A stretch of 51,000 bases of DNA from Fidelibacterota bacterium (GCA_041645495.1 JBAZPZ010000004.1:1-51000), one strand, 5' to 3'. Shown: positions 1,741-41,156, numbered from the stretch's first letter. Notes: generated from the letters alone by a model not told the origin. Translations and numbers: made by a program.

Positions 1741-3345
1741 ATGTTCACTATTATAGGCAAGTTTCTATCCGGGTTAGGACTTTTTTTTACCGGCATCGAA
1801 ATTCTGTCCAATAATCTGAAACAGGCTTCCGGCAGGCGATTTAGACAGATCGTCGCCCGGTGGACGGGCAAAGACTGGAAATCCGGCGTTTTAGGTACGC
1901 TGGCTGGCGCCATTATGCAGAGCAATTCCGCCATTACCTACATAACGGTCGGGATGATCCGGAGTGGCCTGATCTCGGTGCGGCGCGCATTGCCGATTAT
2001 CGCCGGCGCGAACGTCGGAACGGCGACACTTGTCTTAATGGCGACACTGGACATTAAGTTGTTCATGCTTTACCTGTTAGGCGTCGCCGGGCTTTGTTTC
2101 GCGTTTGATAGACCCGCCAAATACCGCACACTGGTCGGAGCGTTGCTGGGAATCGGCCTGCTTTTTCTCGGCATTTTCATGATCGATGAAGGATCACGTT
2201 CTCTCCAAAATTATGAATGGTTCAAGACGATTCTGCTCCTGACGTCGAAATCGTACATCTTTGCATTTCTCATAGGCGTGATTCTGACGATGATCGCGCA
2301 ATCTTCGGCGGCTGTTTCTGTCGTGGCGATCACGATGGCAAGCATCGGACTCTTCAGCATCGAACAGACGATGATGATCATTTACGGCACGAATGTCGGC
2401 TCGGCTCTGATTTCGTGGCTTATGTCGGGCGGGCTTAAAGGAAATTCCCGGCAGATCGCCATGTTTTCGGTGTTTTACGATTGCTTCGGCGGAGTGATTT
2501 TTGTGATTCTGTTTTATGCCGAGATTTACCTGCATGTGCCGTTGATGAAGGCGTTGATCACATCGTTGCCCGGTTCCGTCCAGCAACAGATGGCTTATTC
2601 GTATCTGATTTATAACCTTTTTACGGGAATTGTTCTCTGGAAGTTCTTCGACAAAACCGGTCGCGTACTGGAAAAATTCTATCCGCCGACGGAGGAAGAG
2701 GACGAGTCGAAGGTCAAATTTATTCACGACGGTGCGCTGGTTTTTCCCGAATCCGCGATGGAACTTATCGAAAAGGAACAACTTCGGTTGGCGAATCGGT
2801 TTCCCAAATATATGGATAACGCGCGGTGCATCGTCGAAAAAGGAACACGCGATGGCGTCATCGAATCGTATCACAATGCCTTTTCTTCGGTTGTGAACGA
2901 GATTCAGAATTTCCTGACCGATCTCGTCGAAGAACGGACGTCGCCGCATTCGTCGGAGCGGTTACTTACAATCCAAAACAAGCAGAGCATCATCGTTTCG
3001 ATCGAAGAGAATCTGTACAACTTGGTCAGGACGCTGAATCAATCTCCATGTAACCCGGCGGCGCGTTCGCTGGTGCAAAATTTTATCGAAGGTCTGGACA
3101 CGATTTTGCTCACCGCGATCGATGCACTGGACGACGCCGAAGATTCGACTGCCGAACTGCTGAAAAACATCACGCAGGACAGAGGCAGTACGATGGAGCG
3201 CATCCGAAGCACTTATTTATCCGGCGAAAGCGCCCTCGACATGCAGAGTAAAGCGACGCTTCTCTATGTAACCAATCTTTTCGAACGAACCGTCTGGATG
3301 TTGAATCGGCTGTCCCGGTTACTCGAAGTGAAGGAAAGCAAATAA
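1741..3345 (+). CDS. Na+/phosphate cotransporter family protein (NptA/YjbB-like) with a C-terminal PhoU-like helical domain
   Basis: ORF 1723..3345. The polytopic membrane N-terminus carries the duplicated motifs GANVGTATLVLM and GTNVGSALISWL, typical of Na/Pi cotransporter repeats. The C-terminal roughly 200 aa are soluble and helical. ATG 1741 (MFTIIGKF...) is preferred over TTG 1723. Confidence 0.8.
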   Translation: MFTIIGKFLSGLGLFFTGIEILSNNLKQASGRRFRQIVARWTGKDWKSGVLGTLAGAIMQSNSAITYITVGMIRSGLISVRRALPIIAGANVGTATLVLMATLDIKLFMLYLLGVAGLCFAFDRPAKYRTLVGALLGIGLLFLGIFMIDEGSRSLQNYEWFKTILLLTSKSYIFAFLIGVILTMIAQSSAAVSVVAITMASIGLFSIEQTMMIIYGTNVGSALISWLMSGGLKGNSRQIAMFSVFYDCFGGVIFVILFYAEIYLHVPLMKALITSLPGSVQQQMAYSYLIYNLFTGIVLWKFFDKTGRVLEKFYPPTEEEDESKVKFIHDGALVFPESAMELIEKEQLRLANRFPKYMDNARCIVEKGTRDGVIESYHNAFSSVVNEIQNFLTDLVEERTSPHSSERLLTIQNKQSIIVSIEENLYNLVRTLNQSPCNPAARSLVQNFIEGLDTILLTAIDALDDAEDSTAELLKNITQDRGSTMERIRSTYLSGESALDMQSKATLLYVTNLFERTVWMLNRLSRLLEVKESK

Positions 3346-3347
3346 AT

Positions 3348-4649
3348 ATGACAATTACATTTGAACAACAGTCGGATGTTTTGATCGGGAAAATGACAGG
3401 CAGGCTGGATTCCGTCAGCGCCAATGAAACAAGCGAAGCACTTAGTTCACAGGTTAATTCGGGCGCCTACCGGATCGTTCTGGACATGGCGAATGTCGAT
3501 TATTTATCGAGCGCGGGCATCCGCGTTTTACTCACGCTCAAGAAAATGATCGTCAAACTCAACGGCGACGTGAAATTGGCCGGCGTTCAGCCTTATCCGC
3601 TTAGCATTCTGAAAATTTCCGGTTTCCTCACGATTTTCAGTGTTTATGCCACGGTCGAATCGGCGCTCGCATCTTTTTCAACGGAAAAGACCGGAAAGGA
3701 AACCGAAGCGGTTTCATTCGATGAATTTCAGATGGCAAACGCCGTCTGGCATGTTTTTCCGCGAAGCACTGAACCGACCCGGATTCGGGTGAGCGGGGAC
3801 AACCGCGATTTCCTTTTTGCGAGATGCTCGCGCGCCGGAATCGTTTCGACGGGTTTATCGAAGATCAAATACTCGCTCGGCATTGGCGCAATGGGTGAAA
3901 CCGTCGAGAATTGTTACGACCGGATCGGCGAACTGATGGTTTTGAACGGCGCGTTGATCTGGGTTCCGACAGACGCTCATAACGTTCCGGATTTTCTGAT
4001 CCCGCGAGGCGAAGCCGACGATGTGAAAATCCATACGGCTTTCCACGTGATGCTGGATGACAATTTCAACGAAATCGTGGCGTTCGATGCGACCGACAAG
4101 CAAGAAGGTTTGTCTTTGAAAAATCTCTATCAGGAACTCTTTTGTCTCGCCAGGCAACGGAATCCGGAATTCAGCGGATTGATTGGAATCGTCATGCGGG
4201 CAGACGTCGGTTCTATTTTCGGCGCCGGGATCAAACGCGCGCCTATCGTCGAAAATGCACCTGCAAACGGCGAATCGATCACGCATCGCGACAACATCAA
4301 AGAGTGGCTGAATTTCCAGATCGAACCGGAATATCCGAACACGACCGCGTTAGTCGTTGGCGTCGGATTGGATGTTCGGTTTTCGATCGATCCGACGACA
4401 ATCCAGTCGATTTTTTCCCTCGATCAGCAAGGAACGCGGTCGCCGCTAACGCATAGCCATTCGGCGATATTCCAATTTTTACCGTCGGGACAGCATCCGA
4501 TCCAGCTGGAAGCCGAAATCAAGGACATCGTCGAGAACGGCGAATTTCTCGGCATGGAGCATCTTTTGGATAAATCGACTTTCAAAAAAGGCGTGATCGG
4601 CTTGAGTTATATCCGGGAAATCGTTCTGGAGAAAGCGGAAAAGATATGA
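3348..4649 (+). CDS. STAS-domain protein (SpoIIAA/RsbV-like anti-sigma-factor antagonist fold, residues ~1-110) fused to an unassigned C-terminal domain of ~320 aa
   Basis: The N-terminus LDMANVDYLSSAGIRVLLTLKK...LAGVQPYPLSILKISGF matches the STAS pattern (compare SpoIIAA ...FMDSSGLGV...). The candidate phospho-acceptor is Ser54 at 3507..3509. I match the rest of the protein to no family. The start is 2 nt after the upstream stop, and the stop overlaps the next start (ATGA at 4646). Confidence 0.8.
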   Translation: MTITFEQQSDVLIGKMTGRLDSVSANETSEALSSQVNSGAYRIVLDMANVDYLSSAGIRVLLTLKKMIVKLNGDVKLAGVQPYPLSILKISGFLTIFSVYATVESALASFSTEKTGKETEAVSFDEFQMANAVWHVFPRSTEPTRIRVSGDNRDFLFARCSRAGIVSTGLSKIKYSLGIGAMGETVENCYDRIGELMVLNGALIWVPTDAHNVPDFLIPRGEADDVKIHTAFHVMLDDNFNEIVAFDATDKQEGLSLKNLYQELFCLARQRNPEFSGLIGIVMRADVGSIFGAGIKRAPIVENAPANGESITHRDNIKEWLNFQIEPEYPNTTALVVGVGLDVRFSIDPTTIQSIFSLDQQGTRSPLTHSHSAIFQFLPSGQHPIQLEAEIKDIVENGEFLGMEHLLDKSTFKKGVIGLSYIREIVLEKAEKI

Positions 4650-5515
4650 TACTCTGGATCGGCGCGATCACACAAGGACTCGGCTATGCTTTTCTGGCGC
4701 TGGGCGTCTATCTGACATTCCGCGTCCTGAAATTTGCCGATATGACCGTGGACGGCAGTTTCGTGACCGGCGCATCCGTTACGGCGATTTTAATCATTAA
4801 CGGCGTTCATCCGTTGCTCGCGATGCTGGCGGCGATTGTTGTCGGTAGTCTTTTCGGAATGTTAACCGGATTGATTCATACCAAATTCAAGGTCGATCCG
4901 CTTTTGGCAAGCATTCTGGTGATGACCGGGTTGTATTCTATCAATCTGCACATCATGGGGCGGTCGAATCTGCCGCTAATGAACGAACGAACTGTCGTTT
5001 CAATCGTCGAAGGCTGGAACTTCGGCATTCCGGATTTTTGGATCGTCCTGGCCGCTTTTCTGGTTGTAGTTCTAATCTTGAGATGGATGCTGGTAGTGTT
5101 TTTAAAAACCGATCTCGGACTCGCTCTGCGGGCGACGGGCGACAATCCGCAGATGATCAGTGCGCAGGGCGTGAATACCGACACGACGAAAATCTTCGGG
5201 CTGGCGCTTTCCAACGGACTGGTCGCCTTTTCCGGCTCGCTCATCGCCCAATATCAGGGATTTGCCGACGTTGGAATGGGCATTGGAATTTTGGTCGCTG
5301 GAATCGCATCGGTAATTATCGGCGAGTCCATCGTCGGGAAGAAAAGCGTAAACCTGCTGATCTGGGGCGTCATCTTCGGTTCGATCCTGTTTCGTCTATT
5401 GATCGCGCTGGCGCTGAAAGCCGGATTGAATCCGATCGATCTGAAACTGGTAACGGCAGTTTTCGTTTTTCTGGCGTTGGCGTTGCCGCAGATTCGGAGG
5501 TTTTTCAAGAAATGA
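4646..5515 (+). CDS. ABC transporter permease (COG4120-type, partner of PF04392 binding proteins)
   Basis: 289 aa polytopic membrane protein. It has the branched-chain/BMP-like permease signature ...DLGLALRATGDNPQMISAQGVN.... It lies directly upstream of the cognate ATPase with an ATGA overlap. Confidence 0.85.
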   Translation: MILWIGAITQGLGYAFLALGVYLTFRVLKFADMTVDGSFVTGASVTAILIINGVHPLLAMLAAIVVGSLFGMLTGLIHTKFKVDPLLASILVMTGLYSINLHIMGRSNLPLMNERTVVSIVEGWNFGIPDFWIVLAAFLVVVLILRWMLVVFLKTDLGLALRATGDNPQMISAQGVNTDTTKIFGLALSNGLVAFSGSLIAQYQGFADVGMGIGILVAGIASVIIGESIVGKKSVNLLIWGVIFGSILFRLLIALALKAGLNPIDLKLVTAVFVFLALALPQIRRFFKK

Positions 5516-6324
5516 TTCGGTTGGAAAAAATCTGCAAGACGTTCGTACACGGCGGCGGCGACCGCATCTTGGCTTTAAATGCCGTCGATGTATTCATTCC
5601 GGAAGGCGAATTTGTGACGGTTATCGGAACCAACGGTTCCGGGAAATCGACGTTTTTAAATGCCATTGCCGGAAAATTTATTTGCGACTCCGGCAAGATC
5701 ATTCTCGATGGAAAAAATGTGACCAATCAGCCGGAATATAAACGCGCCGGATTGCTCGGAAGAGTTTTTCAGGATCCGTTTACCGGAACATCACCCGGTA
5801 TGACGATTTTCGAAAACCTGAGAATCGCGATGTTGAGAGGCATGCCGCGCCGCCTCAAACTCGGACTCTCCGAATCCGAACGGAATCGATATTACGACGA
5901 ACTGAAAAAATTGGAAATGCATCTGGAAGAACGGTTGAACGCCACCGTCGGACTGCTTTCGGGCGGACAGCGTCAGGCGCTGACTCTGCTCATGGCGACG
6001 ATCCGCAAGCCGAAAATCCTGCTTTTAGACGAACACACCGCCGCTCTCGATCCCAAAGCCGCCGAACAGATTGTCCGGCTCACGAAGAAAATAGTCGGCG
6101 AAAATCATTTGACGACCGTGATGATCACACATTCCATGACGCAGGCTCTCGATCTCGGCAGTCGGACGATCATGATGCACAAAGGAGCCGTCATCGGCGA
6201 TTTTTCCGGCGACGAGCGCAAGCGGATGAAGCCGGTCGATTTGCTGAATCGGTTCAATGAACTGCGGAAGCAGGAATTGATGGACGAGGAATTGGTAAGC
6301 ATGCTTCAGGAAGGATATTATTAG
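5512..6324 (+). CDS. ABC transporter ATP-binding protein (COG1101-type)
   Basis: Walker A GTNGSGKST, signature LSGGQRQ, Walker B ILLLDEHTAALD. True start is MIRLEKICKTF at ATG 5512. The ORF-track start at 5038 is an in-frame read-through of the permease gene. Confidence 0.9.
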   Translation: MIRLEKICKTFVHGGGDRILALNAVDVFIPEGEFVTVIGTNGSGKSTFLNAIAGKFICDSGKIILDGKNVTNQPEYKRAGLLGRVFQDPFTGTSPGMTIFENLRIAMLRGMPRRLKLGLSESERNRYYDELKKLEMHLEERLNATVGLLSGGQRQALTLLMATIRKPKILLLDEHTAALDPKAAEQIVRLTKKIVGENHLTTVMITHSMTQALDLGSRTIMMHKGAVIGDFSGDERKRMKPVDLLNRFNELRKQELMDEELVSMLQEGYY

Positions 6325-7317
6325 ATGATGAAAAGTGAAATGAAACGGTTCACGACAATATTCATATTGGCGACCTCGGTCTTCACGATGATGCAATGCC
6401 GGAGCAAATCGGACGAAAAAGTGACGACGATCGGTCTGTTTCAGTTCGCTTCCCGAATCACTGTCGATGAGGCGATGAAAGGCGTGCGCGACGTTCTCGC
6501 AGACAGCGGATATATCGACGGCAAAAATTGCCGAATCATTTACCGGAATGCGGAAAACGATTTTTCGACGGCGCAGTCGATGGCGAATGAATTCGTCGTG
6601 AAAAATGTAGACATCATCATCAGCATTACCACTCCTTGTCTGCAGGTGACGGCGAACGCGAACAAAACGATTCCGCATGTCTTTGGAATGGTTACCGATC
6701 CGTATTTGGTCGGTGCCGCAAAAAGCCCGACGGAACATCAGCCGAATCTAACCGGATTGGCGACATTTCAGCCGGTCGCGGACGGCGTTGATCTGATCAA
6801 ACGGGTTCTTCCAAAAGCGAAACGCATCGGCGTGATCTGGAACCCATCGGAAGTTTGCTCGCAGGCATGTTTGAGCAGAATGCGTCCGGCGATGCAAAAG
6901 AACGGATTTGAACTCATCGAAGTTACCGTCACCAGCACTAATGAAGTTCAGATGGCGGCGCAAAGTCTTGTCGAGAAGAAAGTCGATGCCATCTACATTT
7001 CCGGAGATAATACTGTCGAACTGGCGATTGCCACGATAGCCGCCGTCGCAAATCCGGAGAAAATTCCCGTCGTGACCAATAATCCGATGCACACCGAAAA
7101 AGGCGCGCTGATGAGCATCGGTGCCGATTATTATACCGTCGGAAAAGAGACGGCGAAACTTGCCGTTCGCGTATTGAAAGGTGAAAAGCCTGCGGACATT
7201 CCGATCTCGGATCTCTTGCCCAAAGAGTTGTGGCTGAATCGGGAAGTCGCAACGGAGATGCGAATTCGTTTTCCGGAAACTGTCGTTGCGCAGGCAAAGA
7301 AAATTGTTGGTAAATAA
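6325..7317 (+). CDS. ABC transporter substrate-binding protein (PF04392/COG2984-like), paralog 1
   Basis: Signal peptide with Cys (TMMQC). It shows conserved blocks shared with the next ORF (IGxxQ..., ...DGKN.RI.Y(F)QNA..D..T, ...II/VTISTPCL, RIGV/PWNPSE, KVDAIY/V.S.DN.V). It starts immediately after the ATPase stop. Confidence 0.85.
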   Translation: MMKSEMKRFTTIFILATSVFTMMQCRSKSDEKVTTIGLFQFASRITVDEAMKGVRDVLADSGYIDGKNCRIIYRNAENDFSTAQSMANEFVVKNVDIIISITTPCLQVTANANKTIPHVFGMVTDPYLVGAAKSPTEHQPNLTGLATFQPVADGVDLIKRVLPKAKRIGVIWNPSEVCSQACLSRMRPAMQKNGFELIEVTVTSTNEVQMAAQSLVEKKVDAIYISGDNTVELAIATIAAVANPEKIPVVTNNPMHTEKGALMSIGADYYTVGKETAKLAVRVLKGEKPADIPISDLLPKELWLNREVATEMRIRFPETVVAQAKKIVGK

Positions 7318-7328
7318 GGAGAACCGAA

Positions 7329-8288
7329 ATGTTCAAACGACTAATGGTTATATGGATGCTCGGTTGTGGAATCTGTGGATTTTTCGGTTGTGGCCGATCC
7401 GATGCTCTGCCGACGGTAGGCATCGTTCAAATTTTGGAGAATCCACAGCTGGATCAGGGACGATTCGGCGTCGTGGACGCGCTGAAGAAAGCCGGGTTTG
7501 TCGATGGAAAGAACATCCGGATCGACTTTCAGAATGCGCAGGGCGATCTGCCGACGATCGATATGATTTTACAGAAATTCGTCAGCGAAAAGGTCAAACT
7601 GATCGTGACGATCAGTACGCCGTGCCTGATCTCCGCCTGCAATAATGTGAAAGATATTCCGGTCGTTTACACGATCGCTTTTCAGCCGGAGGTTCTCGGC
7701 GTTAAAAGCGTACCGCCGAAGATCGTCGGAGTTTACGATCCATTGGAAACCGACCGGATCGTCCAACTGATGCGGAGATTGATTCCCAGGCTCAGGCGCG
7801 TCGGTATTCCATGGAATCCGTCGGAAATGAATGCGCGCTTAGCCGTGGAAAGTATGAAGAAAACCTTGACGCGGAATCGGATCGACATCGTGGAAATGGC
7901 CGTCGCCGGAACTTCGGAAGTGTATCAGGCGGCGTCTGCGCTTGCCAACCAGAAAGTCGATGCAATTGTCGCCTGCTCGGATAACAGCGTGTACGCGGCG
8001 ATCGGCTCGCTGGTGAAAGTCGGCGAAACCAGTCGGATTCCGATTTTTGTCCTTGAACCGACGATCGTGCAGGGCGGAGCGAGTGTTGGTTTGGGAATCG
8101 ATTATTACGACTGGGGTTCTGCCAGCGGCGAGTTGGCGGTTCGAATATTGAAAGGCGAATCTGCGGAAGACCTTCCGGATGTAGCTCTCGAGAAAAAGAA
8201 ACTATATCTGAATCTGACACACGGAAAGGCGCAAGGTCTCGATTTTCCGCCGGATTTGGTGAAGAGCGCCGACAAGATCATCCCATAA
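7329..8288 (+). CDS. ABC transporter substrate-binding protein (PF04392/COG2984-like), paralog 2
   Basis: Lipobox-like GFFGC. It is clearly paralogous to 6325..7317. AAGGAG sits at 7316..7321, 7 nt before the ATG. Confidence 0.85.
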   Translation: MFKRLMVIWMLGCGICGFFGCGRSDALPTVGIVQILENPQLDQGRFGVVDALKKAGFVDGKNIRIDFQNAQGDLPTIDMILQKFVSEKVKLIVTISTPCLISACNNVKDIPVVYTIAFQPEVLGVKSVPPKIVGVYDPLETDRIVQLMRRLIPRLRRVGIPWNPSEMNARLAVESMKKTLTRNRIDIVEMAVAGTSEVYQAASALANQKVDAIVACSDNSVYAAIGSLVKVGETSRIPIFVLEPTIVQGGASVGLGIDYYDWGSASGELAVRILKGESAEDLPDVALEKKKLYLNLTHGKAQGLDFPPDLVKSADKIIP

Positions 8289-8350
8289 ACAACGATGACG
8301 GTCATATGAAAATGGAACACTCCGACAGGATGCAACACAAGGAAAAATGT

Positions 8351-9307
8351 ATGAGAAGAGCAATCATTTCGTTCATGATATTGTTGGGATTCATCGGCGT
8401 GGAAAGCCGGGCGGAGAATCAGAAACCGGTCGTTCTGCAGGTACAATGGTTCCCGCAGGCGCAATTCGCCGGTTACCTGATGGCTAAGGAAAAGGGGCTC
8501 TTCTTGGCGGAAGGAATTAACGTGGAAGTCCGGTTTGCCGACGAACACACCAGCCCGATCAACGAACTGTTTAGTGGGCGCGCCGACTTTTGTACAGCAT
8601 GGATTTCCCAGACGCTGACACTGGAAAAACCGATCGTCAATATTTGTCAGGTTTTGCAGAAATCGTCGCTCATGCTCGTCGCCAAAAAAGAGAGCGGCAT
8701 CTTGAAGCCGGAGGATATGAACGGAAAGACGATCGCGATCTGGGGCGGCGATTTCTCGATCCAACCGTACGCATTTTTCCGGAAATTCAACATCAAACCG
8801 AATCTAGTGCCTCAGGCGTACAATATCGATGCGTTTCTCGTCGGCGCCTATGACGTTGCTTCGGCAATGTATTACAATGAGTACAACAAATTCTATCTTT
8901 CCGGAATCGATCAGGACGAATTGGTGCAATTTTTCTATTCCGATTACGGCTTGAATTTCCCGGAAGATGGCGTCTATTGCACACCCAACACCTTTGCAAC
9001 GAATCCGGCGCTCTGCCGGAAAATGAAGCGTGGCATACTGAAAGGTTGGGAATATGCGTTTGCCCATGAGGAGGAAACGTTGGACATTTTGATGGACTAT
9101 TGCGCGAAATATCACGTCCGCACAAATCGCGCCCATCAAAAATGGATGCTGGAAGCCATCAAACAGGCGGTCATTTATCAGGTCGGCGACGATCCGAAGA
9201 AATGGGGCGTTTTAAAGAAGGACGATTTTCTGCGCGTCGCGGAGGAATTGAAGCAACAGGGATTCATTCGGACTATTCCCGATTACGAAAATTTCTACAA
9301 AGAGTAA
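8351..9307 (+). CDS. NMT1/THI5-like (SsuA/TauA-type) periplasmic substrate-binding protein
   Basis: ORF 8306..9307. The QWFPQAQFAGYLMAKEKGLF motif is typical of NMT1/THI5-type binding proteins. The signal peptide MRRAIISFMILLGFIGVESRA begins at ATG 8351, though 8306 is possible. Confidence 0.7.
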   Translation: MRRAIISFMILLGFIGVESRAENQKPVVLQVQWFPQAQFAGYLMAKEKGLFLAEGINVEVRFADEHTSPINELFSGRADFCTAWISQTLTLEKPIVNICQVLQKSSLMLVAKKESGILKPEDMNGKTIAIWGGDFSIQPYAFFRKFNIKPNLVPQAYNIDAFLVGAYDVASAMYYNEYNKFYLSGIDQDELVQFFYSDYGLNFPEDGVYCTPNTFATNPALCRKMKRGILKGWEYAFAHEEETLDILMDYCAKYHVRTNRAHQKWMLEAIKQAVIYQVGDDPKKWGVLKKDDFLRVAEELKQQGFIRTIPDYENFYKE

Positions 9308-9312
9308 AATCT

Positions 9313-11238
9313 ATGGAAAAGCATCATAAATCTACCGTGAAGAAACCGATCGTCCGGCGACTCGTCATCTGGATCGGCGTTCCCCTTTTTGTCGTCTATT
9401 TTGCAGTCGTCGTTACGAATTATGTTCAGAGCAAGAACGCCGCCATCGAGCGGATGAATCTGTATTTGATCGAACTGACCAGCCACTATGCATCCGAATT
9501 AAACTCACAGTTTTTAGTGATTTCCCAGACTCCGACGATCGTCGTCGAAGCGATCGAAGCGATGAAAAATCCGACAGAAAAAGCCTTATTCGATTTGATG
9601 GAACGCCGTCTGACGGTCAACCAAAACATATTCGGAATGAGTATCGCTTTTGAACCATATGCCTTCAGTTCGCAGGAAAAGGAATATGCGCCGTATGTCT
9701 TTCGTTCCAAAAACGGCCTGGAAAAGGTCTTTCTGGATCATGGATACAATTACACGACTGCCGATTGGTATCTGATTCCCAAACTTCTCAAGACAACTTA
9801 CTGGACGGAGCCATATTACGATGAAGGCGGCGGGAACACGCTGATGTGCACTTTCTCGCATCCGCTTCATCTGAAAGGAAAATTTGCCGGAATCGTGACC
9901 GCTGATATTTCGCTGACCGAACTGGAAAAAACGATGCGAGGGACCAATATTATCGCAGGCTACACGTTTATTGTCGGTCGAAGCGGAACGTTTATCTATC
10001 ACCCCAACGCCGATTATGTGATGCGCGAATCCATTTTCAGCCTCGCCGAACGCTTCAAGATGCCGGATTTGCGCGCGGTTGGAAAAAACATGATTCACGG
10101 CAAGCAAGGCATCGCCGCCTATAAAGACCTTCAAACAGGCGAGAGAAACTGGACGGTCTATACGCCGATTCCTTCCTGCCAGTGGACGTTCGCCGCAGTT
10201 ATTCCCGAAGAAAAAGTGCTGGGACCGGTCAATGCGCAAATGTACCGGCAAATTTCATATATGTTAGTCGGACTGGTTATTATTCTGATTGTGATTGTCT
10301 GGGCTTCGTACGGAATTACGATTCCGCTGAGAAAACTTGCCGGATTCGCGGAAAAAATATCGACCGGCGATCTGAACGTTCAGATCGAAGGAATCAAAGG
10401 CGAGGACGAGATTCACGAGTTGGCCAGTGTCTTTAATAAAATGGTCGCCGACTTAAAACGACATATTAAAGATTTGACGACAGCAACCAAAGCGAAGGAA
10501 GCCGTCGAAAGCGAATTGCGCATCGCCCGACAAATTCAGGAATCGCTTTTGCCGCGCGTTTTTCCGCCGTTTCCTGATCGTACCGAATTCGATCTGTTCG
10601 CAAAAAATTATGCCGCCAAAGACGTCGCCGGCGATTTCTACGACTTCTTTTTTATCGATGAAAACCAGCTCATCATCATCATTGCGGATGTTTCGGGCAA
10701 AGGCATTCCGGCGGCGCTGTTCATGGCCGTCAACCGGACGCTGATGAAAACCGTTTGCCAGAAGGGCGTCGGCCCCGCCGAGTCGTTGAAAAAGGCGAAC
10801 ACGATTTTAAGTCTGGATAATGACGCCTGCATGTTCACGACGTTGTTCCTCGCTGTTTACGACGTGAAAACCGGCGAAATGACATTTGCCAACGCCGGCC
10901 ATAATTCACCGTTCATCATTTCAAAAGACGGTTCTCATCGGACGCTGGAGTCGTTTGGCGACATTTTTCTCGGTGTCACTCCGGATTTTACCTACCGCGA
11001 AGGTCATGAACATATCGATGTCGGCGACCTTCTGACGCTTTATACCGACGGCGTCACCGAAGCGACTTCGCCCGAGGAAACGTTATTCGGCGAAGAACGA
11101 TTTATCCGCAATATTTCATCGCACATGAATCAATCGCTCGACCTGATCTGGCATGAATTACATGACGATCTGGATAAGTTTCAAGAAGGCCACCAGTTCG
11201 ACGACATCACGCTGATGTTGCTGAGAAGAAATACGTAA
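9313..11238 (+). CDS. Membrane sensor phosphatase: TM - Cache-like periplasmic domain - TM - HAMP - SpoIIE/PP2C (RsbU-type) phosphatase
   Basis: Start MEKHHKST at ATG 9313. The track start at 9100 overlaps the previous gene in another frame. Two TM helices flank a ~270 aa periplasmic region with Cache-like motifs (YVFRSKNG..., WY..., EPYYDEGGGNTLMCT). HAMP region: IPLRKLAGFAEKISTGDL...FNKMVADL. PP2C motifs: VAGDFYDFF, IADVSGKGIPAALFM, NAGHN, LYTDGVTEA, DDITLMLL. Confidence 0.85.
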   Translation: MEKHHKSTVKKPIVRRLVIWIGVPLFVVYFAVVVTNYVQSKNAAIERMNLYLIELTSHYASELNSQFLVISQTPTIVVEAIEAMKNPTEKALFDLMERRLTVNQNIFGMSIAFEPYAFSSQEKEYAPYVFRSKNGLEKVFLDHGYNYTTADWYLIPKLLKTTYWTEPYYDEGGGNTLMCTFSHPLHLKGKFAGIVTADISLTELEKTMRGTNIIAGYTFIVGRSGTFIYHPNADYVMRESIFSLAERFKMPDLRAVGKNMIHGKQGIAAYKDLQTGERNWTVYTPIPSCQWTFAAVIPEEKVLGPVNAQMYRQISYMLVGLVIILIVIVWASYGITIPLRKLAGFAEKISTGDLNVQIEGIKGEDEIHELASVFNKMVADLKRHIKDLTTATKAKEAVESELRIARQIQESLLPRVFPPFPDRTEFDLFAKNYAAKDVAGDFYDFFFIDENQLIIIIADVSGKGIPAALFMAVNRTLMKTVCQKGVGPAESLKKANTILSLDNDACMFTTLFLAVYDVKTGEMTFANAGHNSPFIISKDGSHRTLESFGDIFLGVTPDFTYREGHEHIDVGDLLTLYTDGVTEATSPEETLFGEERFIRNISSHMNQSLDLIWHELHDDLDKFQEGHQFDDITLMLLRRNT

Positions 11239-11284: not shown

Positions 11285-12109
11285 TTATGGCGTTGCGATT
11301 GGTTTTAGAAGTGAGCGAAAAGTCTCGATAGAAATTAGCGGCAAATCGGCGATGTTCTGGATAAACGGACTGACGTCCTGCAGAACTATATTAAAATCGG
11401 TTTGTTCGACTTTCCGGAAAACAACATTCCGCCAGTTGGATTCATCCACGGAAAATTCAAGTTCACCGGACTGTTTGAGCGCATTGTTCAAATATAAAAA
11501 GTTTGGCGAGAGATCACTCCATCGGCTTAGATAGAAAAGCAGATCGTAGAAGTCGCGTCCTTTCGTGAATTCCCGTCGGAGAAGTGCATGGAGTTTTCCC
11601 GACAAAAAAGTCTTTAGATCATGATGCCGAATCGCGAAAGGGAAATAGGTGTTGACGATGGAATTTTCAGTCTGGTAACCTTCAGGCGGATTGGTGTCAA
11701 TTTCGATTTTGACGCTCAGAACTGCATTTTTATGTGGCGATAAATTGGCGTTTAACAAAAGTCCGGTAAAGCCGAGCCAGAGCGTTAGGACGGGCTTGTT
11801 CAGGCTGGGAGACGCCGTCAGTGTGTAATTCTGCTTCTCCAACCGTCGAACCAAAGAAGAAAAGATAGCCTCAAATCCGTCTGCTTTTTGTGACAGGTCA
11901 ACATGAAAATCCAAATCCTCTGAAAAACGGCGTAATCCGTGAAGAATCCGAAGCGCGGTTCCACCATGAAAAATTATTTGTCGGTGTGCATTGAGTTCAA
12001 AAAGCTCTCTTAAAATGACATGCTGAAGATATTCACGCATTCGGTTTTTACCTGATCGCGGGTCTTCGGATTGTCTGGCGATTTGAATGGCTTCGTCTTT
12101 CAAGTCCAT
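11285..12109 (-). CDS. abiEii: AbiEii/AbiGii-family nucleotidyltransferase toxin (DUF1814, type IV toxin-antitoxin)
   Basis: 274 aa. IFHGGTALRILHGLRRFSEDLDFHVD is the characteristic NTase motif of AbiEii. It overlaps the upstream antitoxin gene by 10 nt. Confidence 0.85.
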   Translation of the reverse strand: MDLKDEAIQIARQSEDPRSGKNRMREYLQHVILRELFELNAHRQIIFHGGTALRILHGLRRFSEDLDFHVDLSQKADGFEAIFSSLVRRLEKQNYTLTASPSLNKPVLTLWLGFTGLLLNANLSPHKNAVLSVKIEIDTNPPEGYQTENSIVNTYFPFAIRHHDLKTFLSGKLHALLRREFTKGRDFYDLLFYLSRWSDLSPNFLYLNNALKQSGELEFSVDESNWRNVVFRKVEQTDFNIVLQDVSPFIQNIADLPLISIETFRSLLKPIATP

Positions 12110-12714
12110 AACTCTGGAATTGATAAAAGTAGTGTGATTGTTCGGATCGTTTTTGGACTATTAATTTTTTCAGTGAACTGTTTCAGTTTATCAATGTCCA
12201 GTGATTTGAGGTTTTGAAAGCGCATTTCCTTCAGACGTGAAATCGTCCACTCGCCGGTGGATAAGTAGAAAAAATCCAGCAGGGCTTTTTCTGGCAGGGC
12301 GATGAAAAAATCGGTTTCCCTGCGTCGATAACCCCAAAAACGTTCCTGCAGGATTTTGTAGTATGCAAATTGACCGATTTCTGTCGTCCACTTTTTCGAT
12401 ACTTGCGTCGTGACGGACTGAATGACGGAAACACTTTCCGGGATCAATCCGTAGAATTCGAGCGCTGAATGGAGACTAATGTATGAAGGATGGTAAATGC
12501 TGTTGGCGATTGAAAAATGATTCGGTTTTGATTTGCGGTAAAGTTCGGGTAGCAGATAATGCCCCCGATGAAGTTGAATCAACTTTTTCTGACTGACCCA
12601 ACGGGATAAACGAGCGCGGATTTGTGCGGGCGGTTCGCCGAGAAGTACGTCCAATTCGCCCGATTCAAAATAGGGTCGGCTTGAATAACGACTGATGAGT
12701 GTTTCATATTTCAT
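12100..12714 (-). CDS. abiEi: AbiEi-family antitoxin / transcriptional autoregulator (type IV toxin-antitoxin)
   Basis: 204 aa. It has an N-terminal winged-helix-like segment (...RLSRWVSQKKLIQLHRGHYLL...) and an AbiEi-like C-terminal domain. It lies immediately upstream of, and overlaps, abiEii. Confidence 0.75.
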   Translation of the reverse strand: MKYETLISRYSSRPYFESGELDVLLGEPPAQIRARLSRWVSQKKLIQLHRGHYLLPELYRKSKPNHFSIANSIYHPSYISLHSALEFYGLIPESVSVIQSVTTQVSKKWTTEIGQFAYYKILQERFWGYRRRETDFFIALPEKALLDFFYLSTGEWTISRLKEMRFQNLKSLDIDKLKQFTEKINSPKTIRTITLLLSIPELWT

Positions 12715-35836: not shown

Positions 35837-36829
35837 ATGTTCTATTTTGCAGACTGGTACTTTCTATTTTTATTGATAGCGATCCCGGCGATCGTCTGGT
35901 GGTATCGGCGAAAAGGTCACCGGAAAGAGGCCACCTTTCGTTTTCCGTCTATTCAATCCGTCCGGGAAATTTCCGGCGATAGACAAAAGTGGAAAATACA
36001 GGCGCTTTTTCTGATGAAACCGACAGCCGTCGTTTTGCTCATTCTTGCGCTGGCGCGACCGCAGAGCGGATCGAACACGCGCGAGTTTTCGACGGAAGGA
36101 ATCGACATCATTCTCGTTCTCGACATTTCCGGATCGATGGGCGCGATCGACTTCAAGCCGAACCGCATGGAAGCCGCCAAATCCGTTGCGATGAATTTTA
36201 TCGAAGGCAGGAAAGACGACCGCATCGGACTGGTCGTTTTCGCCGCTGAGAGCTTTTTGCAATGCCCGCTAACTATCGACTACGATGTGCTGAAAGGACT
36301 GCTGAAGCAGGTGACGATCGTCGAACAAAAATATGACGGGACGGCGATCGGAATGGCCATCGCCAACGCGGTCAATCGTCTGCGTGATAGTCAGGCGAAA
36401 AGCCACGTCATGATCTTGCTTTCGGACGGTCGAAACAACGCCGGTGAACTCGATCCCAGCACCGCGGCGAATATGGCCAAGGCATTCGACATCAAAATAT
36501 ACACGATCGGAGCCGGAAAACGCGGGCAGGCGCCTTACCCGGTTCGGTTCCCGGACGGTCGCATCGAATACCGGATGATGGATGTGGAGATCGACGAAGG
36601 CATTTTGAATGCCATCGCCGAGACGACGGGCGGAAAATATTTTCGTGCAACCGACGAAAAAAGCTTATCGACGATCTACAACGAAATCAGCAAAATGGAA
36701 AAAACCGAAGTGAAGGTGAAGGAATTCACGAATTATCGCGACCTGTATGTGTGGTTTCTTTTACCGGGAATTCTGCTGCTTTTCGTCAGCGCCGGATTGG
36801 GACAATCGTTCTGGAGGAAAATGCCGTAA
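35837..36829 (+). CDS. batA: VWA-domain membrane protein BatA
   Basis: N-terminal TM helix, MIDAS motif DISGSM, C-terminal TM helix. First gene of the batA-E order. Confidence 0.8.
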   Translation: MFYFADWYFLFLLIAIPAIVWWYRRKGHRKEATFRFPSIQSVREISGDRQKWKIQALFLMKPTAVVLLILALARPQSGSNTREFSTEGIDIILVLDISGSMGAIDFKPNRMEAAKSVAMNFIEGRKDDRIGLVVFAAESFLQCPLTIDYDVLKGLLKQVTIVEQKYDGTAIGMAIANAVNRLRDSQAKSHVMILLSDGRNNAGELDPSTAANMAKAFDIKIYTIGAGKRGQAPYPVRFPDGRIEYRMMDVEIDEGILNAIAETTGGKYFRATDEKSLSTIYNEISKMEKTEVKVKEFTNYRDLYVWFLLPGILLLFVSAGLGQSFWRKMP

Positions 36830-37848
36830 TGGTTAAATTCGCGCATCCGGGATTGTTTTGGCTGTTTTTACTCTTTGCGGGAATCATCGTGCTTCTCATC
36901 GTTTACCGGATTCGCCGGAAAAACGATCTCCGCTTACTGGCCGGCGACGATCTGTCTAATAAACTTCTGGACGATTTCAGCCCGACGATGCGGCGGATCA
37001 AAGAAAATCTGTTGATTTGGGGACTTCTCTTTTTGGTGATCGCCGCGATCGGACCGAAAGTGGGAAAGAAACTCGCCGAAATCAAACGGCGCGGCATCGA
37101 CGTCATTATTGCACTCGACACTTCCGTCAGCATGAGAGCCGAAGATATCAAGCCAAGCCGTCTGGAGCGGGCGAAATACGAGGCGGGAAAATTCATCGAA
37201 GGACTTCAGGGCGACCGGATCGGCGTCGTGACGTTTGCCGGAACGGCTTACCTGCAATGTCCGTTGACGCTGGATTACAGCGCCGCCAAGTTATTTCTCG
37301 ACGCAATCGACACCGGCGTCATCGGAACGCAAGGCACGGCCATCGCGGATGCGATTCAAACGGCGGCAAAGGCGCTCGATTCGAAGGATAAAAAGCACAA
37401 GGCCGTGATCCTGATTTCCGACGGCGAAGATCATGAGGGCGAGATTGAAAGCGTCATCGAACAGGCTGAAGAGGAAGGCATCGTGATTTATGCCATCGGC
37501 GTCGGAACATCGACGGGCGCTCCGATTCCCGTACCAAGCACAGACGGCATGGGAATGGAATTTAAAAAAGACCGATCCGGACGAATCGTGACGACGGCGA
37601 TGGACGAGACCGTTCTGCGCCAGATTGCGAACGCGACCGACGGCAAATTCTATTCGCTCAATCAGACCACTGACGCATTCGGGAAGATTTACAAAGAAAT
37701 CCTGCAGATGGACAAAAAGGATTTGCGCTCCCACGAATACAGCGATTATCAGGAACGGTATCAAATATTCCTGGCGATCGGATTGTTGCTTCTCATCGCC
37801 GAGATCGTCCTACCGGAGAAAATAAAACGCAAAGCGGAAGAAGAATGA
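36829..37848 (+). CDS. batB: VWA-domain membrane protein BatB
   Basis: Start MVKFAHPGLFW at ATG 36829 (TAATG junction). MIDAS motif DTSVSM, with terminal TM helices. Confidence 0.8.
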   Translation: MVKFAHPGLFWLFLLFAGIIVLLIVYRIRRKNDLRLLAGDDLSNKLLDDFSPTMRRIKENLLIWGLLFLVIAAIGPKVGKKLAEIKRRGIDVIIALDTSVSMRAEDIKPSRLERAKYEAGKFIEGLQGDRIGVVTFAGTAYLQCPLTLDYSAAKLFLDAIDTGVIGTQGTAIADAIQTAAKALDSKDKKHKAVILISDGEDHEGEIESVIEQAEEEGIVIYAIGVGTSTGAPIPVPSTDGMGMEFKKDRSGRIVTTAMDETVLRQIANATDGKFYSLNQTTDAFGKIYKEILQMDKKDLRSHEYSDYQERYQIFLAIGLLLLIAEIVLPEKIKRKAEEE

Positions 37849-38558
37849 TGAAGTTTCTCAAAATAGACAGGTTGTTCATCGGAGTTTTCTTTCTGACAAT
37901 GGCGGCCGGAAATGTGTTTTCGGCGGATGGTGCGCTGAAACTCTATCAAAAAGGCAAATACGACGACGCCATCCGAAAATACAACCGCATCATCAAAGAT
38001 CATCCGGATTGGGAAGAGGCGCATTACGGCAAAGGCGCCGCGTTGTACAAATCCAATCAGGTCGAAGAGGCTATCCGGGAATTTGAAAGCGCCATTCCGA
38101 TGAAAGATCCAAAACAGAAGTCCGCCGTTTTATACAACATGGGCAACGCCCTCTATCAGGCCAATCGCATCGACGAGAGTTTGCAGTTCTACAAAAAAGC
38201 TCTCGAACTGAATCCGAAGGACATGGACGCCAAGTACAACTATGAACTGGCCAAAGCCATGCTGAAACAGCAAAACTCCCAGGACAAACAACAGAGCGAC
38301 CAAAATCAACAGAAAAAGGATCAGAAAGATCAGCAACAAAATGGGCAAAACAAACAGGAACAACAGCAAAAAGAGCAACAGAAACAGAACGCCCGGCATC
38401 CCGAAGATTCGGGACAGATGAAAAACCGAAAAGAAAAAGAGAAAGATCAGAAAGAAGCCGCCCAAATTCTGGATGCTCTCAAAGAGAACGAGAAGAATCT
38501 GATGCAGGAACGAATGAAAATACAGTATTCCGGAATCAAGAAGGAAAAAGACTGGTGA
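37845..38558 (+). CDS. batC: TPR-repeat protein BatC with a Gln/Lys-rich C-terminal half
   Basis: TPR motifs (...YGKGAALYKSNQVEEAIREFESAI..., ...YNMGNALYQANRIDESLQFYKKALELNP). Position between batB and batD. Confidence 0.7.
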   Translation: MMKFLKIDRLFIGVFFLTMAAGNVFSADGALKLYQKGKYDDAIRKYNRIIKDHPDWEEAHYGKGAALYKSNQVEEAIREFESAIPMKDPKQKSAVLYNMGNALYQANRIDESLQFYKKALELNPKDMDAKYNYELAKAMLKQQNSQDKQQSDQNQQKKDQKDQQQNGQNKQEQQQKEQQKQNARHPEDSGQMKNRKEKEKDQKEAAQILDALKENEKNLMQERMKIQYSGIKKEKDW

Positions 38559-40387
38559 GCGCTACAAAACGATCCAATTCTTTGCTTATTCTGTTTTTTC
38601 TGCTTGTGCTGACCGGCGCGACGATTGCCGATGAACTCCGTGTTTCAGCGTCCGCCGACCCGAATCAAATCACCGCCGACGACCTGATCACTTTCACGAT
38701 TCAAATCGAAGGAACGAGTGATTTTCCAAACGTTCCGCCACCGCAAAGTCCGGACTTCGTCATCGTTGCCGGGCCATCTCAATCCAGCAGCATCCAGATC
38801 ATCAACGGCCGCATGAACGCCTCAAAAATGATCAGTTGGCGGTTAGCGCCGACCAAGACCGGCAAGTTGGTCATTCCACCCGTTTCGATCACGTATCGAA
38901 GGAACGTTTACAAAACCGAACCAGTGACCGTTAACGTTTTGGGACAATCGGCTTCGCAACCGCCGGCAAAGCAGAATCCGCCCGCCCAGCAACCGAACAC
39001 ATCGCAGGGCGCGGGTGTTTTATTGAAAGCTATCCCGTCGAAAACGACGATTTATAAAGGCGAAGAACTGGGCGTCGCTTTTACGCTCTATTTTAAAAAT
39101 GTCCGAACCTACGCGCCGAAAAAACTGCCGGATGCGAAAGGATTCTGGATCGAAGAATTTCCCATCAAAACCGAACCCGAGGTCACGACGGAAAATTTAA
39201 ACGGAGTGACCTATAAAAAGGCGATCATCAAACGACTGGCTCTGTTCCCAACGACTTCCGGCGATTTGGTAATCGATCCGTTCGTCATCGACGTGGAAGT
39301 GATCGTTCCGTCCCAAAAAAGGCGCTCGATTTTCGACGATTTCTTCGACGACTCGTTTTTCGACAACTCATTCGGCGAGGCGAAAGTCGTCAGCGTTTCG
39401 TCCAGTCCGGTTCGCGTGACCGTCCGGGACTTGCCGGAGTCGGGTAAACCATCCAATTATTCCGGAGCCGTCGGCAGATTCACGATTTCGGCATCGATCG
39501 ATACCGCCGAGACGACCGAAGATCAGGCCCTGACACTGAAATATCAGATTTCTGGCACAGGCAATGTCGGCTCGCTGAAAATGCCCGAACTGCAACTTCC
39601 GAATACGCTGGAAGTGTTCGAGCCGAAGATCGGAAAGAGCGTCAACAACCAGGGAAATGCGATTTCCGGAACAGTGACCTACGAATATGTACTGATCCCG
39701 CGGAGTTCAGGACTCATCCGGATTCCGCCGGTCACTTTTTCCTATTTCGATCCGAATCGCGACGGCTACGTCAGCGTGACTGCGAGAGGATTTGACGTTC
39801 GGGTCAATCCCAAAGGAAAAATGTTCGCATCAGATCAGTCCGGTTTGAACAAAGAAGAGGTTTCGCTTTTGGGGCAGGATATCCGGTTTATCCGACGCGA
39901 CAATTCCGGATGGAATAAGATCGGCAGTTCGGTTTTTTCGGAGATTTGGTTTTGGCTCTTGACGATCTCATCCGTAGTGATTTTTTCCGGCGCATTCGGT
40001 TTCCGGTGGTGGGCGGAAAAGATGGTAACGAATATTTCCTTCGCGCGCAAACGCCGCGCCTTGCCGAAATCCCAGAAAGGATTTGCGCAATTAGATGAAA
40101 AAATGAAATTAGGCGATCTGTCGGATTTTGCCTCGATCTTGAATCAAATTCTCGTCAACTTTATTTCCGATCGCCTGAATTTACCGTCGGCAGGAATCAG
40201 CACGCCGGAGATAGAAGTCTGTCTGAAGAAAAAAGGAGTTCCCGAGGAAACAGTTTCCCGGGTCGTTGTGATTTTATCGGAACTGGAACAATTACGATTT
40301 TTACCTTCCGCCGCCGATGCTGAGAGATATTCGATATTGGTTAAAGAGGAAAAAGAACTGATAACGCTTTTGAGCAAGGCAATCTGA
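38555..40387 (+). CDS. batD: BatD-family (oxygen tolerance) protein
   Basis: 610 aa. It has a signal peptide, repeated beta-rich modules, a single TM helix near residue 470 and a cytoplasmic tail, matching BatD size and topology and its operon position. GTG start (GTGA overlap). Confidence 0.75.
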   Translation: MSATKRSNSLLILFFLLVLTGATIADELRVSASADPNQITADDLITFTIQIEGTSDFPNVPPPQSPDFVIVAGPSQSSSIQIINGRMNASKMISWRLAPTKTGKLVIPPVSITYRRNVYKTEPVTVNVLGQSASQPPAKQNPPAQQPNTSQGAGVLLKAIPSKTTIYKGEELGVAFTLYFKNVRTYAPKKLPDAKGFWIEEFPIKTEPEVTTENLNGVTYKKAIIKRLALFPTTSGDLVIDPFVIDVEVIVPSQKRRSIFDDFFDDSFFDNSFGEAKVVSVSSSPVRVTVRDLPESGKPSNYSGAVGRFTISASIDTAETTEDQALTLKYQISGTGNVGSLKMPELQLPNTLEVFEPKIGKSVNNQGNAISGTVTYEYVLIPRSSGLIRIPPVTFSYFDPNRDGYVSVTARGFDVRVNPKGKMFASDQSGLNKEEVSLLGQDIRFIRRDNSGWNKIGSSVFSEIWFWLLTISSVVIFSGAFGFRWWAEKMVTNISFARKRRALPKSQKGFAQLDEKMKLGDLSDFASILNQILVNFISDRLNLPSAGISTPEIEVCLKKKGVPEETVSRVVVILSELEQLRFLPSAADAERYSILVKEEKELITLLSKAI

Positions 40388-40388
40388 T

Positions 40389-41156
40389 ATGAACGTACGC
40401 GAAATCTTCATCGTGATTTGGGTGAGTTTGACTTCCATGGCATTCGCCGGAAACGATCAAAGCGCCGATTATTTATTTGAAAAAGGTAACACCGCATATC
40501 AAAACGAGAACTATTCGGAAGCGATCGACCAATACCAGTCGATTTTAGCGCTGGGACTCGAAAGCGGTTCGCTGTATTACAATCTGGGAAATGCCTACTA
40601 TCGCACCGGTGCCATCGGGCTGGCGATTTTGAATTACGAACGCGCACTGAAATGGTTGCCGAATGACGAGAACGTCCGGTTCAACCTCAAATTGGCAAAC
40701 CTGACCGTCAAAGACCGGATCGATCCGCCACCCGAATTCTTCCTGTTTCGCTGGGTCCGGCAGGCAACGAATCTGCTTTCTTCCAGAGGTTGGGGATTGC
40801 TCGTGGCGATTTTTCTATTCATCGCGTCGGTTGCCGTTGCCGTCTTGACACTCGCCGAAGCCAAGCGGTTCCGGACGTCACTGAAATATCTGACGGGAAT
40901 CTCAGCCGCTATCGTGCTGATCTCCGTAGCCGCGATGATTCCGAGACATCGGATCGAAACGGGGCAAAACGCGGGCATCATCATTCATTACAGTGTTCGG
41001 AGTTTAGCCGCGCCGCAGGAAGGAAGTACGGAATTGTTCATCGTTCATGAGGGCACGAAAGTCGCGATTCTCGACAAAGACGGTGATTGGCTGAAAATAG
41101 AATTGATCGACGGAAAGCAGGGGTGGATTCCAGCCGATGACATCGGTACAATCTGA
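40389..41156 (+). CDS. batE: TPR plus C-terminal SH3-like domain protein BatE
   Basis: TPR (YNLGNAYYRTGAIGLAILNYERALKWLP), TM helices, and a C-terminal SH3b-like ...GDWLKIELIDGKQGWIPADDI. Confidence 0.7.
   Translation: MNVREIFIVIWVSLTSMAFAGNDQSADYLFEKGNTAYQNENYSEAIDQYQSILALGLESGSLYYNLGNAYYRTGAIGLAILNYERALKWLPNDENVRFNLKLANLTVKDRIDPPPEFFLFRWVRQATNLLSSRGWGLLVAIFLFIASVAVAVLTLAEAKRFRTSLKYLTGISAAIVLISVAAMIPRHRIETGQNAGIIIHYSVRSLAAPQEGSTELFIVHEGTKVAILDKDGDWLKIELIDGKQGWIPADDIGTI

Follow-up and report, generated by a model that had tools for sequence, protein, structure and literature searches.

What do a STAS-domain protein and a SpoIIE-type protein phosphatase control when they are encoded among transporter genes, with neither a kinase nor a sigma factor beside them? 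The question is raised by an array of eight genes at positions 1741-11238 of a 51,000-nucleotide stretch of DNA from a Fidelibacterota bacterium (GCA_041645495.1, JBAZPZ010000004.1:1-51000), the whole of which is referred to here as the window. Partner switching is known almost solely as a way of freeing sigma factors, with a few enzyme outputs, and little is understood of how bacterial importers are controlled post-translationally. We tentatively read the array, with a confidence just short of even, as the Marinimicrobia version of a recurrent and undescribed neighbourhood in which a Ser-phosphorylation module of the partner-switching type is coupled to a TrpX-family importer and, here, to a Na/Pi-type carrier.

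All eight genes lie on the plus strand, and the coordinates and spacing given for them in an earlier interpretation made from the DNA alone (the sequence-only reading) were borne out when every start, stop and gap was read again from the open reading frame (ORF) listing and directly at the junctions. Successive genes are separated by 2, -4, -4, 0, 11, 62 and 5 nucleotides, and such close same-strand spacing is, as far as sequence can tell, what an operon gives. The first gene (1741..3345) encodes a 534-residue carrier of the Na/Pi-cotransporter family (Pfam PF02690, E = 2.9e-45; NF037997, Na_Pi_symport) and is separated by 2 nucleotides from the second (3348..4649), which encodes a 433-residue protein with a STAS domain (PF01740, E = 3.7e-18, residues 3-106) and a long C-terminal region. 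The stop codon of this gene overlaps the start of a BPD_transp_2 permease gene (4646..5515; PF02653, E = 6.5e-29) in an ATGA at 4646, and a second ATGA at 5512 joins the permease gene to that of a 270-residue ATP-binding cassette (ABC) ATPase (5512..6324; PF00005, E = 1.9e-27). Two substrate-binding lipoproteins of the ABC_sub_bind type follow, the first of the TrpX-like family (6325..7317; PF04392, E = 2.5e-66) and the second at 7329..8288 (PF04392, E = 2.4e-58). Next comes an NMT1/THI5-type periplasmic binding protein (8351..9307; PF09084, E = 1.7e-30), for which an alternative ATG at 8306 would shrink the 62-nucleotide gap to 17. The last gene (9313..11238) encodes a 641-residue membrane sensor phosphatase in which a periplasmic dCache domain lies between two transmembrane segments and is followed by HAMP and PP2C/SpoIIE domains; its Pfam matches were SpoIIE (PF07228, E = 9.7e-51, matched over its full length), MCP-like_PDC_1, dCache_1 and HAMP. 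Consensus promoters occurred at chance level, and terminator-like sites were all within coding sequence, with none in the intergenic gaps or after the PP2C gene; both scans were uninformative. Neither Rfam nor tRNA scans gave any match in the window.

By its Pfam domains the importer is a TrpXYZ-type set (PF04392 binding protein, BPD_transp_2 permease and single ATPase). The two binding proteins scored 254.7 and 193.9 bits, respectively, against the TrpX model NF041285, both below the 390-bit equivalog cut-off that marks tryptophan specificity. The Na/Pi carrier consists of a membrane domain of about 310 residues and a cytoplasmic tail of about 220 residues. The tail had been called PhoU-like, but no PhoU domain was matched in it in Pfam (E up to 1) or among PDB sequences, and a single-sequence AlphaFold2 model of it was all-helical but of low confidence (predicted local distance difference test, pLDDT, 45).

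We call the product of the second gene STAS-ALDC after its two domains. It had been described as a STAS fusion protein, and the STAS part of that description stands; what had been missed was a C-terminal domain that, by AlphaFold2 modelling and Foldseek comparison, resembles alpha-acetolactate decarboxylase (ALDC). Residues 1-107 form a STAS domain of the SpoIIAA/RsbV type, with E-values of 1e-15 to 2e-20 against SpoIIAA-type antagonists in a profile search of PDB sequences, Foldseek TM-scores of about 0.9 to RsbV and SpoIIAA structures, and a match to TIGR00377. Leu53, Ser54, Ser55, Gly57 and Arg59 are invariant across 25 homologues, down to 22% identity. The phosphorylated residue had been proposed to be Ser54; both serines are invariant, but it is Ser55 (codon 3510-3512) that aligns with phospho-Ser58 of SpoIIAA and is thus the predicted phospho-acceptor.

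The C-terminal region, spanning about 310 residues (approximately 122-430), went unmatched by Pfam models across all 25 members. In the AlphaFold2 model built on the family alignment (pLDDT 88.4, predicted TM-score 0.83) this domain has the ALDC fold: Foldseek matched it to 12 ALDC chains (E-values of 5e-10 to 4e-8, target-normalised TM-scores of 0.63-0.70), with 1xv2, 5yho and 4bt2 at the top (E = 5e-10, TM-scores of 0.65-0.70), and also to the zinc fold of human PTD012. The 25 homologues share G178xG180, G194-E195, P207-T-D209, D215, H369xH371 and H405 without exception (E195 is encoded at 3930-3932, H369 and H371 at 4452-4460 and H405 at 4560-4562, plus strand). Sequence comparison reaches much less of the domain. 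The ALDC family PF03306 was not matched by any of the 25 members at thresholds as loose as E = 10, no ALDC turned up when a profile was searched against PDB sequences, and a profile-profile comparison by hhalign with four canonical ALDC domains encoded at related loci placed 'LGIG...GELMVLNG' on 'GLGT...DGEMVVLNG' (E = 0.011), with confident alignment confined to the LGxG...GE(L/M)xVLxG segment of about 20 residues. The aligned 'DGEM' segment of ALDC carries its catalytic Glu. HxH...H may be the counterpart of the ALDC zinc triad, with the third His (H405) 34 residues past the HxH rather than about 11 as in ALDC, and the domain is probably zinc-binding. It could itself be the output of the module or a ligand sensor.

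STAS-ALDC proteins are widespread. A word-index search returned 28 proteins and understated the size of the family, while 452 stretches were picked up when a pattern was run against a library in which each bacterial or archaeal species is represented by one genome, and 416 of them encode a relative; among the hosts are Marinimicrobia, Cloacimonadota, Verrucomicrobiota, Syntrophomonadaceae, Dehalococcoidales, Methanobacterium, Methanoculleus and others. When the C-terminal domain by itself served as the query of a full HMMER search, 539 clusters at 50% identity were obtained (E up to 1e-3; 273 at E up to 1e-10). The domain begins at about residue 120-170 of a 400-470-residue protein in nearly all 539 clusters, so the ALDC-fold domain is almost always fused to a STAS domain. 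Some members, mostly archaeal, are extended further by a kinase-like domain. Two proteins of about 810 residues carry a C-terminal TCAD9/APH/RIO-like kinase domain (L021:7182-9608 and L024:9998-12439; L and P numbers denote related loci and proteins), and the 722-residue P0022, whose position in our neighbour-joining tree is unreliable, has a C-terminal Hanks-type Pkinase domain after an ALDC-fold domain at residues 140-431. Our literature search found no paper naming both a STAS domain and acetolactate decarboxylase, and the STAS-ALDC architecture is absent from a 2021 review of STAS proteins (PMC8256260). STAS-ALDC is an undescribed and unannotated family whose main domain lacks a Pfam model.

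The sequence-only reading had suggested a gene-neighbourhood search around the STAS protein, and in that search the STAS protein, the Cache-HAMP-PP2C phosphatase and the ABC importer recurred together in Cloacimonadota and other uncultured lineages. Among relatives at 37-89% identity (the window clade), the full order of Na/Pi carrier, STAS-ALDC, permease, ATPase, two binding proteins, NMT1 and Cache-PP2C is found in the window, L093, L094 and L001/L013. STAS-ALDC is followed by permease and ATPase in L095, L010, L014 and L008, and additionally by three or four binding proteins in L006 and L011. The Cloacimonadota loci L002/L003 have the order GNAT, STAS-ALDC, permease, ATPase, with a divergent group of aldehyde dehydrogenase, short STAS, NMT1, Cache-HAMP-PP2C and HATPase_c_2 genes. 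In L007 a Xan_ur_permease-HATPase_c_2 fusion precedes STAS-ALDC, permease, ATPase and three binding proteins, and the divergent group begins with aldehyde dehydrogenase, short STAS and a Cache gene. L017 carries, on one strand, permease, ATPase, binding protein, canonical ALDC lipoprotein, NMT1, Cache-PP2C, RsbW, short STAS and STAS-ALDC, and L033 and L096 repeat this order with a binding protein between short STAS and STAS-ALDC. The metagenome scan supplied at least two of these window-clade loci (L095 and L096).

STAS-ALDC lies in or beside a permease/ATPase/PF04392 operon at L001, L002, L006, L007, L008, L010, L011, L014, L016, L017 and L095, which are all the window-clade loci with enough flanking sequence. 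The permease orthologue is directly downstream of STAS-ALDC in most window-clade loci and in the same operon in all with a sufficient contig, and the 270-residue ATPase has orthologues at ten loci (L002, L006, L007, L008, L010, L011, L012, L014, L017 and L095). In a neighbour-joining tree all 10 window-clade leaves are ABC-linked, and so is a deep, basal branch at 25% identity (L012, the second copy in L050, and L136). The STAS-ALDC gene is embedded between importer genes at L006 and at L012, where it stands between the binding-protein and permease genes of an operon that ends with a permease-kinase fusion gene. In the 89%-identical Neomarinimicrobiota metagenome-assembled genome (MAG) of L001/L013, the permease frame is split (8654-9564; ORFs 8654-8968 and 8971-9564, with no gene called), which reflects an assembly error or marks a pseudogene.

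Shared neighbourhoods of this kind could also arise if the operon held two independent units, with NMT1 and Cache-HAMP-PP2C acting on other phosphoproteins, STAS-ALDC and the ABC importer unrelated to them, and the Na/Pi carrier a chance neighbour. Four loci with STAS-ALDC and ABC genes but no visible PP2C gene (L006, L008, L010 and L011) fit this account, as do the wealth of PP2C genes in many genomes and the adjacency of the Na/Pi carrier in five lineages only. We nevertheless regard it as very unlikely, since the orthologous NMT1/Cache-PP2C pair accompanies STAS-ALDC in differing orientations in four further lineages (L002, L017, L033/L096 and L077), L017 and L033 place PP2C, RsbW, short STAS, (binding protein) and STAS-ALDC in this order on one strand, and Na/Pi carriers of the same subfamily adjoin distant STAS-ALDC members at L059, L126, L147 and L164.

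The same loci clarify the role of the third binding protein. An NMT1 gene is directly upstream of the Cache-PP2C gene in L002, L017, L033 and L077, and the two are kept together when they lie apart from, or divergent to, the ABC genes (divergent in L002 and L077). NMT1/SsuA-type binding proteins have BPD_transp_1 permeases as their partners, not BPD_transp_2. Because NMT1 is always upstream of Cache-PP2C and belongs to a type that pairs with BPD_transp_1, comparison of these sequences suggests that it probably serves the phosphatase as a co-sensor rather than the importer as a third binding protein. Of the three importer binding proteins initially counted, the two PF04392 proteins therefore keep that assignment, whereas NMT1, which co-varies with the phosphatase and not with the importer, probably loses it.

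A complete partner-switching cycle requires attention to the kinase. The claim that the window lacks a GHKL kinase and a sigma factor proved correct: Pfam scans found no GHKL kinase, second STAS domain or sigma-70 region in the array's eight genes, the hydrolase upstream of them or 38 further ORFs (almost every non-overlapping ORF of at least 120 residues and two shorter ones), and a six-frame hidden Markov model search of all 51 kb, using RsbW and STAS profiles built from the relatives, detected only the one STAS gene. Two contigs with the same gene order and a 99% identical STAS protein (L093 and L094) have their arrays bounded by the same convergent AbiEii/AbiEi pair, and in L093, where the upstream flank is 6.6 kb longer than in the window, the added sequence holds no kinase, STAS gene or sigma factor. 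A response-regulator-HATPase_c protein upstream in L001 was considered as the missing kinase and rejected: it has a normal histidine-kinase H-box, and it aligned with the RsbW profile over about 50 residues of the common GHKL core only (9.6 bits).

At the window's own downstream border, 46 nucleotides past the PP2C gene, a convergent AbiEii toxin gene (PF08843) and an overlapping ORF upstream of it lie at 11285-12714 on the minus strand. The overlapping ORF, of 204 residues, has no Pfam match and occupies the place expected for the AbiEi antitoxin. This type IV toxin-antitoxin pair stands where L002 and L017 have an RsbW-like kinase gene, and because those loci carry the gene at that position, the kinase gene may have been lost from the window's locus in a rearrangement of which the pair is the trace.

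Relatives in fact encode the kinase. Cache-HAMP-PP2C orthologues at L002, L017, L033 and L077 have an RsbW-like kinase gene following or beside them, and in every relative whose contig continues beyond this phosphatase gene, an RsbW-like kinase is encoded next to it or as a fusion with the adjacent permease. NMT1 and Cache-HAMP-PP2C are accompanied by both RsbW and a short STAS protein in L002/L003 (divergent), L017 (one operon), L033/L096 and L077. The fused form occurs in two distant branches, where permeases of the Xan_ur_permease (NCS2) family, 572-577 residues long, carry a C-terminal RsbW-like HATPase_c_2 domain (L007:2948-4666 and L012:12986-14719; E about 2e-5) and directly adjoin the STAS-ALDC/ABC genes. 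We know of no description of an anti-sigma-type kinase tethered to a transporter. The idea that the system works without a kinase by design thus does not hold, since relatives encode an RsbW-like HATPase_c_2 protein and a short STAS protein by the same phosphatase, or else a permease-fused kinase. The missing kinase is peculiar to the window's locus, where either a kinase must act in trans or the module must be reduced.

An RsbW-like HATPase_c_2 protein in relatives, together with a STAS domain that is closest to SpoIIAA/RsbV structures and TIGR00377, is also what an ordinary partner switch would have. STAS-ALDC would then be the antagonist of an RsbW-type anti-sigma/sigma pair encoded elsewhere, the output would be transcription, possibly of this operon, and the adjacency to transporters would reflect co-regulation. 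Several observations make this quite improbable. No sigma factor follows the rsbW-like genes of L002, L017, L019, L021, L069 and L077; among 110 neighbouring ORFs from 19 loci that had no other assignment, no sigma-70 family is represented more than once; and none was found in the Pfam-annotated related loci. Two loci encode the kinase domain as part of a permease, and the conserved extra domain of 310 residues is missing from canonical antagonists.

Farther afield, we counted neighbours at the 141 non-redundant loci that the genome and metagenome scans had yielded. PP2C genes lie within 2 kb of STAS-ALDC at 15 loci (24 within 10 kb), RsbW-like genes at 16 (22) and short STAS genes at 17 (30), and at least one of these partner-switch parts is within 2 kb at 32 of the 141. 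An ABC importer of the window's type is within 2 kb at 14 loci (15 within 10 kb), a Na/Pi carrier of the window's subfamily at 6 (9) and an NCS2 permease at 4 (6); 20 of the 141 have a transporter of these three classes within 2 kb. PP2C-RsbW-NCS2 operons adjoin the STAS-ALDC gene at L107, L109 and L111. In a Dethiobacter MAG, 39 nucleotides downstream of the STAS-ALDC gene, a 620-residue 5TMR-LYT-SpoIIE-HATPase_c_2 protein (L048:11344-13206) combines phosphatase and kinase within one membrane protein.

Genes of metabolism recur among the neighbours as well. An aldehyde dehydrogenase gene followed directly by a short STAS gene is present at L002:7581-9330, L007:985-2740, L091:758-2556 and the P0022 locus, and canonical ALDC (PF03306) genes are present at L017, L033, L025, L032, L110 and L137. 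Both fit an account in which STAS-ALDC is mainly a Zn-dependent, decarboxylase- or hydrolase-like enzyme acting on an imported substrate, with phosphorylation of its STAS domain as an on/off switch and the PP2C sensor tuning catabolism. The ALDC fold found by Foldseek, the invariant GE motif that hhalign places on the 'DGEM' segment and the invariant HxH...H point the same way. We consider this account unlikely, given that none of the 25 members has a Pfam ALDC match and that some 20 residues alone align confidently with ALDC; repeated kinase fusions and RsbW/PP2C neighbours are, moreover, what signalling proteins typically show and catabolic enzymes do not. The canonical ALDC homologues encoded nearby also lie outside the cytoplasm. 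The domains at L017:5885-6673, L033:259-1047, L025:4662-8576 and L032:1450-4773 belong to extracytoplasmic proteins, one of them a lipoprotein with an LFLSC lipobox and another (L025) a 1304-residue GH3-SLH-sensor-ALDC fusion; in the 1107-residue ORF of L032 the C-terminal ALDC domain alone was detected. An extracytoplasmic ALDC beside STAS-ALDC hints at the same ligand inside and outside the cell.

The coupling of a phosphorylation module to transport that we tentatively favour can be put together as follows, with the questions of which protein dephosphorylates which, and whether the output is transport, answered by inference. The periplasmic NMT1-like protein and the dCache domain would sense an external ligand, and HAMP would relay the signal to the cytoplasmic PP2C domain, which would dephosphorylate Ser55 of STAS-ALDC. 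The STAS-ALDC gene would be translationally coupled to that of the permease, and in one phospho-state its product would dock on the co-encoded importer, the carrier or both, in the manner of MlaB on MlaF, altering uptake. The ALDC-fold domain would bind a small molecule and so bring in metabolic information from inside the cell. The phosphorylating partner in relatives would be the RsbW-like kinase, free or fused to NCS2, and the short STAS protein would compete for this kinase. The proposal that STAS and PP2C form a partner switch with a transporter output is partly supported, by the shared conserved neighbourhood, by the recurrence of three transporter classes and by the lack of a recurring sigma factor; its kinase-less character as a class is given up. 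Comparative sequence evidence supports a functional link between the STAS protein and PP2C and a module tied to transporters and not to a sigma factor.

Some of the evidence weighs against this coupling. With no kinase encoded at the window's locus, phospho-cycling is not completable from the parts encoded there. Most members of a clade at 31-37% identity (Verrucomicrobiota, methanogens and Firmicutes) are without these neighbours, the transporter included, and transport is not the family's sole role because most family members have no adjacent transporter. The counts over 141 loci are not corrected for phylogeny, and they are lower bounds owing to many short contigs. A metabolic role also fits, both with the aldehyde dehydrogenase or canonical ALDC genes at some loci and with the enzyme-like invariants (E195 and HxH...H) of the ALDC-fold domain.

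A bolder form of the coupling, which we hold to be doubtful, makes the transporters themselves the switched partners, so that a phospho-STAS protein with a metabolite-binding ALDC fold would toggle between an RsbW-like kinase, either separate or anchored to an NCS2 permease, and the cytoplasmic face of the ABC, Na/Pi or NCS2 transporter. The partner switch would then gate uptake post-translationally, joining external cues (NMT1/Cache-PP2C) with internal ones (the ALDC-fold domain). The STAS-ALDC family ties STAS phosphorylation kits to three classes of transporter, permease-kinase fusions included. If the link is physical, it would represent a general mechanism for signal-gated nutrient uptake in uncultured phyla (Marinimicrobia, Cloacimonadota and Verrucomicrobiota) and methanogens, and the ALDC fold would gain a signalling role.

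The remainder of the window is housekeeping by Pfam (NFACT, YicC, Gmk, Dfp, UDG, DnaB, RelA/SpoT, Lnt, TruA, Tal, HtrA, PurB/C/Q, Psd, PssA, GatA, BatA-D, YebC, RuvCA, GcvT, FtsK and LolA). A Bat operon of the aerotolerance type at 35837-41156 comprises BatA, a VWA protein, a TPR protein, BatD and a TPR-SH3 protein. The last 2 kb or so (48930-51000) hold no complete listed ORF of more than 98 residues, have a lower G+C content of about 43%, and gave no Rfam or tRNA match and no notable repeats.

Among known systems, the closest in composition are the RsbU-RsbV-RsbW and SpoIIE-SpoIIAA-SpoIIAB modules, which share with the window's locus a STAS protein with a conserved acceptor Ser and a PPM/PP2C phosphatase of the SpoIIE type; the relatives add the small HATPase_c_2 kinase and a second STAS protein. 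The window's membrane sensor phosphatase, with its periplasmic domain, resembles chlamydial RsbU (PMC11619594). The locus differs from these modules in lacking the kinase, in having no sigma factor either here or recurring in relatives, in the ALDC-fold domain of 310 residues carried by its STAS protein and in the placement of its genes inside transporter operons. A precedent for an output other than a sigma factor is SiaABCD of Pseudomonas aeruginosa, where a HAMP-PP2C phosphatase, a kinase and a phospho-switchable partner act together (PMC7647112, PMC8457831). SiaA is the best NCBIfam match of the window's phosphatase, yet at 69.6 bits against a 700-bit cut-off, and SiaC is not a canonical STAS protein and has a diguanylate cyclase, not a transporter, as its output. 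ALDC itself (PF03306) and human PTD012/C11orf54 share the fold with STAS-ALDC, whose GE motif aligns with the catalytic-Glu segment of ALDC and whose invariant HxH...H resembles the ALDC zinc triad, but there is no sequence match at the level of hidden Markov models, the spacing of the third His differs, and the domain is fused to STAS in the window protein.

For the proposed docking on a transporter, the nearest parallel is MlaB, a STAS protein that binds and regulates the ABC ATPase MlaF (PMC7367683, PMC5016091). Both STAS proteins are cytoplasmic and encoded within an ABC operon, the window's being ATGA-joined to the permease gene. MlaB is a STAS-only protein, unlike STAS-ALDC, and the window's importer depends on binding proteins (BPD_transp_2 and PF04392) and has neither the MlaE permease nor the MCE protein MlaD of MlaFEDB. 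We know of no cognate kinase/phosphatase pair that controls MlaB. SLC26/SulP transporters, which have a STAS domain at their C-terminus, likewise pair it with a secondary carrier, but the window's STAS protein is separate, with no covalent fusion, and its adjacent carrier is of the Na_Pi_cotrans family (PF02690). The NCS2 permeases of L007 and L012 belong to the same class of 7+7 transmembrane folds as SLC26/SulP and carry an RsbW-like domain, which could recruit a STAS protein in trans.

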